From positions 98,336-162,335 of IMG/VR virus record IMGVR_UViG_3300047480_000598: a DNA stretch of 64,000 nucleotides; one strand, given 5' to 3'. This document shows positions 14,930 to 16,155 of the stretch, in pieces; the first letter of the stretch is position 1; each line of letters opens with the position of its first letter. The stretch comes from a virus. Under the pieces are notes generated by a model that searched no databases, was not told where the DNA came from, and saw nothing but the letters and a program-made list of their open reading frames with translations. The position numbers and the translations under genes are program-made.

Positions 14930-15455
14930 TTCAAGATGAACAGAGTTCATCTGTTTTTCGCTTACGCTCAAACATTTTTCTTCTTAAGATATTTAAGGGC
15001 GAAATGAAATGAAGCACTTGATTGATATTATCTAGATAAAGCGGTCATACATCGCCCTTTGCAGGGCGAAAAAAATAAACTGGACATTATCTGAGTATCA
15101 CAGTCATACAACGTTAGGACTACTATGTTACATAAAGATAGCATATTCATTAAACATGTCATCTTTATGTAACATTTCGCAGGCGGTCATCCGGTACCTG
15201 CTCATCCCGTCTTCATTACGACGGCGGCTTACAAACATACGTTATCATGCTTGCAAACGCGAGGGTTTTCTCCTCTCTTTTAGCCTTTATTTTTCTAGAT
15301 AGTTTAAATCGGTTTTGTGAAGGCACATCCGATCGTCGTCCTGTTAAGGATAGTAAACTAAATCTCTGCTACAACCCAGAAATCCCTCCTTGCGACATCA
15401 CCAAGGGTAAGGGCACCTAAATATCTTGCCGGTGCGAGCTTTATTTGTAGTTTGT
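14930..15455 (-). ncRNA. Candidate large structured non-coding RNA (family not recognised)
   Basis: ORF-free ~530 nt with about 11 consecutive stems; G-U wobbles and a GCAA tetraloop that work only on the minus strand; more GC-rich than other intergenic DNA. Confidence 0.7.
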
Positions 15456-15462
15456 TTGCCTA

Positions 15463-15888
15463 TTATGATTTTAAAATATGTGAGCCATGGACGCGAACTT
15501 GTATGTGTCCGTTGTAATAATCAGTAGATTCTAAAACTCGTCTACTAAATTGCTCTCTTGCCTCTACGTATGAACATTCTGCCTTTGTTTTGCAAAAATA
15601 AAGTATTTCTCTAGTAAAGTTTTCTTTGCCTAATTGTTGGATATCTTTGTTTAAAAGATCGCTTGAACCGTAATAATCTCTCCAATCAGAATCGACTTTA
15701 GATTTAATTCTCTTCTTTTTCTTAGTACCATTCTTTAGTATAACAGTTTTATAAGATGTTTTAGAAAATTTTGCTAATTTTTTGCCGATATATTTCCGAC
15801 CAGTGAGTTTATTAGTGATAAGATAGACAAAACCTATATATTCTTCGGGAATTTCCTTCACGAGTTTCTTCTTATAGGTCCATGTCAT
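15463..15888 (-). CDS. Stand-alone GIY-YIG family nuclease
   Basis: Motifs GFVYLITNKLTGRKYIGKK, YYGSS, FTREIL, VEAREQ and YYNGHI; ~141 aa with no C-terminal DNA-binding domain. Confidence 0.85.
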   Translation of the reverse strand: MTWTYKKKLVKEIPEEYIGFVYLITNKLTGRKYIGKKLAKFSKTSYKTVILKNGTKKKKRIKSKVDSDWRDYYGSSDLLNKDIQQLGKENFTREILYFCKTKAECSYVEAREQFSRRVLESTDYYNGHIQVRVHGSHILKS

Positions 15889-15891
15889 CAA

Positions 15892-16155
15892 CTAATTATC
15901 AGATTCATCTTCTCCGGTGCCTAAATTCTGAGCCTTTCTAAGTCTTTTATCCGAATCGACTGCATAGCGCCAGTTCATAATAACTGCTCGCTGATCTTTT
16001 GCTAAGTTTCTAAGCTCGGATAAATGAGTTCTAGTTTCCATTCCTGCCTTACGTGTGCCTTTAGTCATCCATTGTTGATGTGCCTTAAAATATTTGTGAA
16101 ATGCCTGCATAATAGCTTCGTGCAATGTTTCGTCGCGCTTAATTATTTTGGTCAT
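15892..16155 (-). CDS. Histone H1-like (Hc1-type) small basic protein
   Basis: KGTRKAGMETRTHLSELRNLAKDQR resembles the Hc1-family KGNKAAGxRxRKxxxEL core. Confidence 0.55.
   Translation of the reverse strand: MTKIIKRDETLHEAIMQAFHKYFKAHQQWMTKGTRKAGMETRTHLSELRNLAKDQRAVIMNWRYAVDSDKRLRKAQNLGTGEDESDN

Follow-up and report, generated by a model that had tools for sequence, protein, structure and literature searches.

A large structured RNA and a small nuclease gene in a fixed slot behind gp55-gp47-gp46 of giant freshwater T4-like phages

What is encoded in the long gap that follows a small nuclease gene behind the gp55-gp47-gp46 operon of a T4-like phage, and does it work together with that nuclease? 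The question is raised by a 64,000-nucleotide (nt) stretch of DNA (hereafter the window), which covers positions 98,336 to 162,335 of IMG/VR record IMGVR_UViG_3300047480_000598. The window is part of a 162-kb contig that makes up ~44% of the genome of a giant T4-like freshwater phage, complete relatives of which measure 345-355 kb. On its minus strand, gp55, gp47 and gp46 are followed by a basic open reading frame (ORF) of 87 amino acids (aa), a 142-aa GIY-YIG ORF, a 554-nt ORF-free gap and a 240-aa ORF. A first-pass annotation placed a large RNA in the gap and proposed that RNA and nuclease form a ribonucleoprotein particle, possibly one in which the RNA guides the nuclease. The analysis below bears out the RNA and its linkage to the nuclease, and gives poor support to the particle.

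The RNA in the gap

The 554-nt gap folds better than shuffled sequences (z = −6.0) and is conserved end to end, in agreement with the RNA predicted there. Conservation runs from 15448 to ~14930 in 95 non-redundant relatives, a palindromic hairpin excepted. The elements of the RNA and its 3′ boundary, in window coordinates, are as follows.

14930..15448, minus strand: full-length structured RNA, ~520 nt here and ~450-470 nt in most relatives, conserved throughout in the 95 non-redundant sequences
15297..15440, minus strand: 5′ domain, the Rfam RF01718 Polynucleobacter-1 motif, 144 nt (cmscan score 84.2 bits at E 2e-16; gathering score 37)
15179..15258, minus strand: middle domain, with helices 8, 10, 11 and 12 (92.7-99.7% paired, compensatory changes)
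15258-15247 with 15238-15227, minus strand: 12-bp hairpin B, part of the middle domain
15222-15218 with 15190-15186, minus strand: pseudoknot of GUCGU with AUGAC, inside the hairpin of 15201-15197 with 15183-15179
15208-15204 (5′ strand) with 15120-15116 (3′ strand), minus strand: long-range helix (helix 11, 92.7% paired)
15114-15109 with 15244-15239, minus strand: partner strand of the hairpin-B loop (helix 9; element 15109..15120)
15125..15178, minus strand: near-perfect palindromic hairpin insertion of 55 nt between two helices (column occupancy 0.05-0.14)
14935..14973, minus strand: 3′ module (helices 14-16), a stem whose internal element GAGC-GNRA-GCGAA is conserved, followed by the terminal hairpin of 14951-14945 with 14941-14935
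14917..14924, minus strand: T4 late-promoter-like AATAAATA (TATAAATA in many relatives) at the RNA boundary, a block kept past the terminal hairpin, ~20-30 nt before the next ATG

Helices were drawn by eye from compensatory changes, and were then tested on an alignment of 60 sequences. The resulting 16 helices comprise 75 pairs, which were 92.2% paired, compared with 35-44% in controls with slid partners. Changes on both sides were found in 63 of the 75 pairs, and the covariation score was 0.51 (≤0.10 in the controls); no shuffle reached the observed values. The strand of the RNA is fixed by the frequent G-U pairs. The fold includes two pseudoknots, which rank with its best-supported elements. 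In the first (helix 9), a strand located ~130 nt downstream of the 12-bp hairpin joins the hairpin loop (98.9% paired, with covariation in six of six pairs), and in the second, a 5-bp helix forms into the loop of another hairpin (99.7% paired).

The Polynucleobacter-1 motif was described by Weinberg et al. in 2010 (PMC2864571) from 16 examples, located downstream of an unnamed gene family and none of them in purified phages; the supplement of that paper mentions a possible cyanophage homologue of the upstream gene family. The window matches the full model. Helices 1-6, which form this domain, are 83-100% paired, most with double changes; 14 of 17 relatives score 66-121 bits, and the motif is present as a single copy in the 162-kb contig. 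The catalogued motif is the first third or less of a far larger conserved RNA, the remainder of which is uncatalogued. The RNA described here differs from the 2010 motif in its full length of ~450-520 nt, in that the upstream gene encodes a GIY-YIG nuclease, and in that its carriers are giant T4-like freshwater phages. A literature search turned up no paper that takes RF01718 further, and none that connects structured phage RNAs with GIY-YIG nucleases.

When 14700-16300 was scanned against Rfam at a permissive threshold (E up to 5), nothing else credible emerged, with two chance-level hits. Readings of the RNA as a group I or group II intron, tmRNA, tRNA or RNase P were rejected, as there was no support from Rfam or ARAGORN and no interrupted host gene. 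The RNA resembles GOLLD and ROOL in being phage-borne, pseudoknot-rich and several hundred nt long, but it has no covariance-model similarity to them, is fixed behind a nuclease gene and not near tRNAs, and alone carries the twin boxes described below. In bacterial genomes, no true RNA was seen among the first 100 of the 120 pattern matches listed (one match scored 22 bits), nor did these include the copy that the 2010 study described from Polynucleobacter. A GC-rich RNA pattern search gave chance matches only.

The palindromic hairpin insertion is present in ~5% of relatives. Unrelated insertions occur at the same point in a few others, indicating that this is a tolerated expansion site. Three alternative 5′ domains were found among the RNA variants, some of which replace the RF01718 domain, and the 3′ module is the sole part common to the most divergent variants. 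Beyond this module, the AATAAATA or (T/A)ATAAATA block is a putative promoter, judged by its likeness to the T4 late-promoter consensus.

The RNA fills precisely the space from the operon's last ORF to the late-promoter-like motif, a location that raises the possibility of a cis-acting 3′ element. As the untranslated end of the operon, it would shield the early/middle mRNA from 3′ exonucleases, insulate it from the late unit or set the dose of the nuclease. Two further properties fit such an element, namely that the RNA has no conserved promoter of its own, and that the 3′ hairpin module is the part most widely shared among variants. However, the terminal hairpin has no U tract, and a fold of 450-520 nt with two pseudoknots, three 5′ domains and twinned boxes exceeds the needs of stabilization or termination. 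We consider this explanation unlikely.

Linkage to the nuclease gene and exchange of the nuclease

The gene preceding the RNA is the following.

15463..15891, minus strand: stand-alone GIY-YIG nuclease, 142 aa, catalytic domain only (PF19835 SegE_GIY-YIG)

The ORF ends in TAA followed by TAG, and the first stem of the RNA begins at 15435, 28 nt on, so that the close spacing noted in the first-pass annotation is confirmed. Its statement that no signals separate gene and RNA also holds, since neither terminator-like nor promoter-like sites were found on the minus strand between them. The last 20 codons of the nuclease gene showed no excess conservation at synonymous sites, which argues against a conserved promoter buried at its 3′ end. 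Because the RNA has no conserved promoter of its own, it is most likely a read-through product.

Co-occurrence and synteny of the nuclease gene and the RNA were strongly positive, whether loci were sampled by RNA or by protein. In the RNA-first sample, 83 of 100 pattern matches were true RNAs, 82 of them with usable upstream sequence. A GIY-YIG gene was present upstream in 79 of the 82, adjacent in 73 and farther away in six (five at 800-870 nt, which fits an inserted ORF, and one at 180 nt), and was missing in three. In a second sample, based on the twin-box domain, the GIY-YIG gene was upstream in 48 of the 48 loci with a slot nuclease and adjacent in 47. Six more pattern matches in this sample had no nuclease; one is a short piece of the contig of locus L046, and two with Pfam-informative neighbours, lying in unrelated gene contexts, look like chance matches. 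Counting either nuclease family, ~99% of RNA loci have a nuclease, and at most ~1 in 100 are without one.

Relatives of the nuclease are encoded on >588 viral contigs, and the protein-first sample consisted of the best 80 of these (70-80% identical, ORFs of 141-158 aa). Full RF01718-type RNAs were found in 56 of the 80 GIY-YIG loci and RNAs truncated at the contig end in three more, always on the same strand and with the model starting −14 to ~+60 nt from the stop. In a further 14 loci, the RNA was detected with a model of its twin-box core; these have another 5′ domain or an inserted ORF of 275-356 aa. A small class of loci had only the 3′ module in common with the RNA. Nearly all close GIY-YIG homologues carry the RNA or a variant of it. 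In roughly twelve loci, the nuclease gene is separated from the RNA by an ORF of 275-356 aa.

Two of the three RNA loci lacking a GIY-YIG gene encode instead a PD-(D/E)XK nuclease of 173-188 aa at exactly the same position (PF24608, E ~1e-29). A search with this protein yielded 28 loci. Each lies behind gp46, a GIY-YIG gene is absent from the vicinity of every one, and in 17 of them the RNA follows the nuclease. RF01718-type RNA begins 2-10 nt past the end of the ORF in eight loci, and nine more have the twin-box domain behind a variant 5′ domain. The RNAs linked to PD-(D/E)XK genes are 74-81% identical to those linked to GIY-YIG genes, which is the ordinary level within the family. The presence of the same RNA behind an unrelated nuclease shows that it does not co-evolve with one protein partner. 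No third nuclease family was found in a search upstream of the RNA. The nuclease swap may be new.

A further group of loci (L327-L337) has the PD-(D/E)XK nuclease followed by an ORF of 138-156 aa and, in most, a gap of ~700 nt. In three of these gaps that were tested, only the last 30-60 nt, consisting of the stem and terminal hairpin, were common to the twin-box RNA. The gaps may hold a further RNA variant.

The 142-aa ORF matched PF19835 along the entire profile (1-123 of 123; E 2.9e-33, 115.2 bits against a cut-off of 25), and Pfam revealed no second domain, confirming that the protein consists of the catalytic domain alone. The very basic insert reported in the first-pass annotation was not borne out, as the profile is fully covered and the stretch in question (residues 40-66) forms a beta-hairpin that is conserved across the GIY-YIG subfamily concerned. 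Among 26 homologues, the motifs G19-F-V-Y22 and Y33-I-G35 are invariant or nearly so, and R93, E94, E109, R111, E112 and N126 are invariant. The catalytic Arg, Glu and Asn of I-TevI are R27, E75 and N90. An AF2 model of the nuclease (pLDDT 81) has the GIY-YIG alpha/beta fold; the C-terminal tail (residues 123-141), which contains N126, is conserved or invariant and was modelled without confidence. The top six structural matches of the model, obtained with VIA-align (Foldseek alone being weak), are all GIY-YIG enzymes. They include the I-TevI catalytic domain (Z 7.9, root-mean-square deviation 2.4 over 77 residues), the defence nuclease PD-T4-3 (Z 6.9), the N-terminal domain of UvrC (Z 5.5) and T4 EndoII (Z 4.8). 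A sequence search of the PDB with the nuclease gave no match.

T4 endonuclease II (DenA), like the window nuclease, is a phage-encoded, stand-alone GIY-YIG enzyme of ~140 aa comprising the catalytic domain only, but the two have no detectable sequence similarity and differ in genomic context. The first-pass annotation had offered, as its alternative, a stand-alone nuclease of this kind whose adjacency to the RNA is incidental. The stand-alone part fits the data better than the particle does, but the adjacency is conserved and not incidental.

More distant relatives of the nuclease, with 35-49% identity, occur in 780 cultured-phage records. Five cultured-phage loci that were examined showed other gene contexts, no large downstream gap and no RNA. 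These relatives are widely labelled ‘NAD synthetase’ (phrog_447; for example GU071101 PHM1_182 and OQ984149 CDS0110), which appears to be an annotation error that has spread. The nuclease has no orthologue in T4, where the best Seg match has E 1e-4, and a DNA similarity search of cultured phages gave no match.

The nearest relatives of the nuclease in sequence and structure, the SegE family and the I-TevI catalytic domain, are homing enzymes. In T4-like phages, free-standing seg and mob genes are placed beside conserved targets. The slot could accordingly be a homing hot spot, in which GIY-YIG and PD-(D/E)XK genes are free-standing selfish endonucleases and the RNA gene supplies the cleavage site in genomes without the nuclease; the alternation of two unrelated nuclease families at an identical position agrees with this. 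The window nuclease shares with SegE and I-TevI-type enzymes the SegE_GIY-YIG domain, the GIY and YIG motifs and the fold, but differs in having no linker or DNA-binding domain, none being found in its 142 aa. Furthermore, the gene is nearly fixed, and no empty-site alleles were seen. It is under strong purifying selection and more conserved than gp46 (mean identity to the window copy 72.5%, against 63.1% for gp46), whereas selfish endonucleases show the reverse, being patchily distributed and prone to decay. On balance, homing is an improbable account of the slot.

Twin boxes in the RNA

The 3′ half of the RNA contains two short, variable boxes on either side of a GC-rich hairpin.

15086..15098, minus strand: twin box 1, AUA-CUC-AGAUAAU, 13 nt (7-mer identical to that of box 2)
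15052..15069, minus strand: GC-rich hairpin between the twin boxes (helix 13, 88% paired; variants seen)
15027..15039, minus strand: twin box 2, UUA-UCU-AGAUAAU, 13 nt (full mutual information with box 1)

The boxes are 59 nt apart and have the forms nnA-CUC-xyAUzAw and nnA-UCU-xyAUzAw. Their 7-mers are identical in 123 of 125 loci, despite the occurrence of ten different words, and the identity also covers the 3 nt upstream of the fixed CUC/UCU centre. The mutual information between box 1 and box 2 equals their full entropy, while with any other column of the RNA it is ≤0.34 bit, which suggests that the boxes read something outside the RNA. No covariation was found with residues of the GIY-YIG nuclease (mutual information ≤0.31 bit) or with those of the 87-aa ORF.

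Several candidate functions of the boxes were rejected. Mini-ORFs of six codons (GUG/AUG ... UAA/UGA) are ruled out, as length differences among relatives are often +1 nt. CsrA sites do not fit, since about half of the words have no GGA, and -10 promoter boxes do not fit, since several words destroy the -10 consensus. In the window, box 2 forms part of a longer palindrome of 12 nt, the 10-nt core of which, TATCTAGATA, occurs five times in the 162-kb contig (~0.6 expected), at contig positions 15649, 23253, 27958 and 94115 and at window position 15029 (twin box 2 plus flanking sequence). Of the remaining four copies, the three examined are located within or next to ORFs, and relatives do not generally have the palindrome, so it was dropped.

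A hypervariable segment matching some target DNA had been put forward as a sign of RNA guidance. Variable segments exist, in the form of the twin boxes, but their match was not found: the reverse complement of the boxes does not occur within 1.5 kb, and matches to their complement in the 162-kb contig were at chance level.

These results bear on a partnership of nuclease and RNA, in which the RNA would bind the nuclease encoded upstream and either aim it, with the boxes pairing with two identical DNA or RNA sites, or restrain or activate it. The two genes are co-oriented and near-obligately adjacent on hundreds of contigs, at a spacing of 0-60 nt, and insertions are fewer at the junction of nuclease and RNA than at that of gp46 and nuclease. 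The nuclease has no DNA-binding domain, and its conserved C-terminal tail is predicted without confidence, as if it needed a partner; the RNA exposes two hypervariable, always identical 13-nt boxes in a conserved scaffold. Against this, the same RNA occurs, without any corresponding change, behind the unrelated PD-(D/E)XK fold, and nuclease and RNA can be parted by ORFs of 275-356 aa. The boxes do not covary with the protein, no complementary site was found in cis or in the contig, and the more distant relatives in cultured phages do without an RNA of this kind. The variable boxes are also internal and just 13 nt long. Taken together, the swap, the ORF insertions, the lack of covariation and of a target, and the RNA-less relatives argue against a dedicated RNA-guided particle, and we assign a partnership of this type little likelihood.

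The arrangement resembles the OMEGA systems (IscB with HEARO/omega RNA, and TnpB with its RNA), in which a compact nuclease gene abuts a large structured RNA on the same strand. It differs from them in its nuclease fold, and in that no transposon ends were seen and no Rfam similarity to HEARO was found. Its variable segments are internal twins, in contrast to a terminal guide, and the RNA sequence is kept when the nuclease is swapped. A novel type of RNA-dependent nuclease system, in which the RNA is a shared scaffold recruiting either of the two unrelated nucleases, with the twin boxes pairing to two identical DNA or RNA sites of phage, competitor or host and thereby placing a cut or starting recombination for gp46/gp47, appears very improbable to us.

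The slot behind gp46 and its proposed function

The genes around the nuclease and the RNA are as follows.

18937..19767, minus strand: gp55-like late sigma factor, at the head of the operon (E 1.5e-73 to phrog_12791, ‘sigma factor for late transcription’)
17927..18940, minus strand: gp47, SbcD/Mre11-like nuclease subunit (Pfam Metallophos; phrog_100, E 8.9e-67)
16152..17930, minus strand: gp46, SbcC/Rad50-like subunit, marker of the conserved slot (AAA_23, SMC_N; phrog_77, E 8.5e-96)
15892..16155, minus strand: 87-aa basic ORF (Pfam Hc1 E = 0.048, below cut-off)
14174..14896, minus strand: downstream ORF of 240 aa, outside the module and varying among relatives

PHROGs and Pfam assign all three genes of the gp55-gp47-gp46 operon, in line with the first-pass annotation, and gp46 is located upstream on the same strand in 98 of the 101 RNA loci with enough flank. 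The 87-aa ORF had been called an Hc1-like protein. The Hc1 match is not significant, and no significant match was found in Pfam or PHROGs; of 140 RNA loci, no more than 59 have a recognizable copy of the ORF, with 30-50% identity. It is variable cargo, and no obligate part of the module. In many relatives (L031, L024, L068, L002 and L010), genes for radical-SAM, SPASM or B12-binding enzymes replace it between gp46 and the nuclease.

On the other side of the RNA, the 240-aa ORF has no Pfam or PHROG match, and the gene at this position differs in length and even strand among relatives. Its first residues (MKI.EI...; window 14869-14896, minus strand) are kept, though the remaining gene differs in length and family. 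Elsewhere in the window, at 4645-4726 on the minus strand, lies a match to the Rfam freshwater-2 RNA (RF02980; 54 bits, gathering score 49.9), which ends in a ribosome-binding site and ATG, and thus looks like the cis-regulatory leader of a late gene.

We tentatively favour the following interpretation. The conserved slot after gp47/gp46 would be occupied by a nuclease that processes DNA, followed by a distinct RNA that acts in trans and is produced by operon read-through. The two would constitute a two-part cassette in a fixed position downstream of gp55-gp47-gp46 of giant (~350 kb) freshwater T4-like phages. The first part, a small stand-alone DNA nuclease of the GIY-YIG or, in a minority, the PD-(D/E)XK type, would act on DNA alone, possibly as a processing or debranching enzyme of the recombination module. 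The second part would be a separate RNA of ~450-520 nt with several pseudoknots, its 5′ third being the Polynucleobacter-1 motif. It would most likely arise by read-through of the same early/middle transcript and end at the conserved hairpin just before the putative late promoter. Acting in trans, it may bind two copies of a partner through its two identical, single-stranded 13-nt boxes. The tight adjacency would then reflect shared transcription and timing, with no nuclease-RNA particle.

The proposed debranching role draws on the position of the gene, on the PHROG label of the PD-(D/E)XK family and on the absence of gp49. Endonuclease_7 (gp49, PF02945) was not found in three complete relatives of ~350 kb (G027, G051 and G052) or in four cultured carriers of the GIY-YIG family (Melnitz, P-HM1, BUCT-ZZ01 and ACP17), with T4 positive as a control.

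Several points weigh against the interpretation we favour. Cargo piles up between gp46 and the nuclease and is rarely found between the nuclease and the RNA. If shared transcription alone were involved, a position behind any other operon gene would serve the RNA equally well; the uneven placement of cargo hints at selection for the pairing of nuclease and RNA itself. The data demonstrate the genes, the fold, the structure of the RNA, its linkage to the nuclease and the nuclease swap; the debranching role, the co-transcription of gene and RNA, the existence of a stable processed RNA and its action in trans, through a putative partner of the boxes, are all inferred.

The orphan motif of 2010 thus belongs to an RNA that is among the larger and more intricate ones encoded by phages. 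This RNA is abundant in giant T4-like phages of freshwater, where it is linked to a nuclease slot next to the Mre11/Rad50-like recombination genes. Its two interchangeable nucleases, twin variable boxes and defined transcript boundary provide handles for experiments. If the RNA and the nuclease cooperate, nucleases would be targeted here by a principle not seen before. Otherwise, the RNA is still a widespread large non-coding RNA, and the slot nuclease is a candidate for the missing debranching nuclease of T4-like phages that lack gp49.

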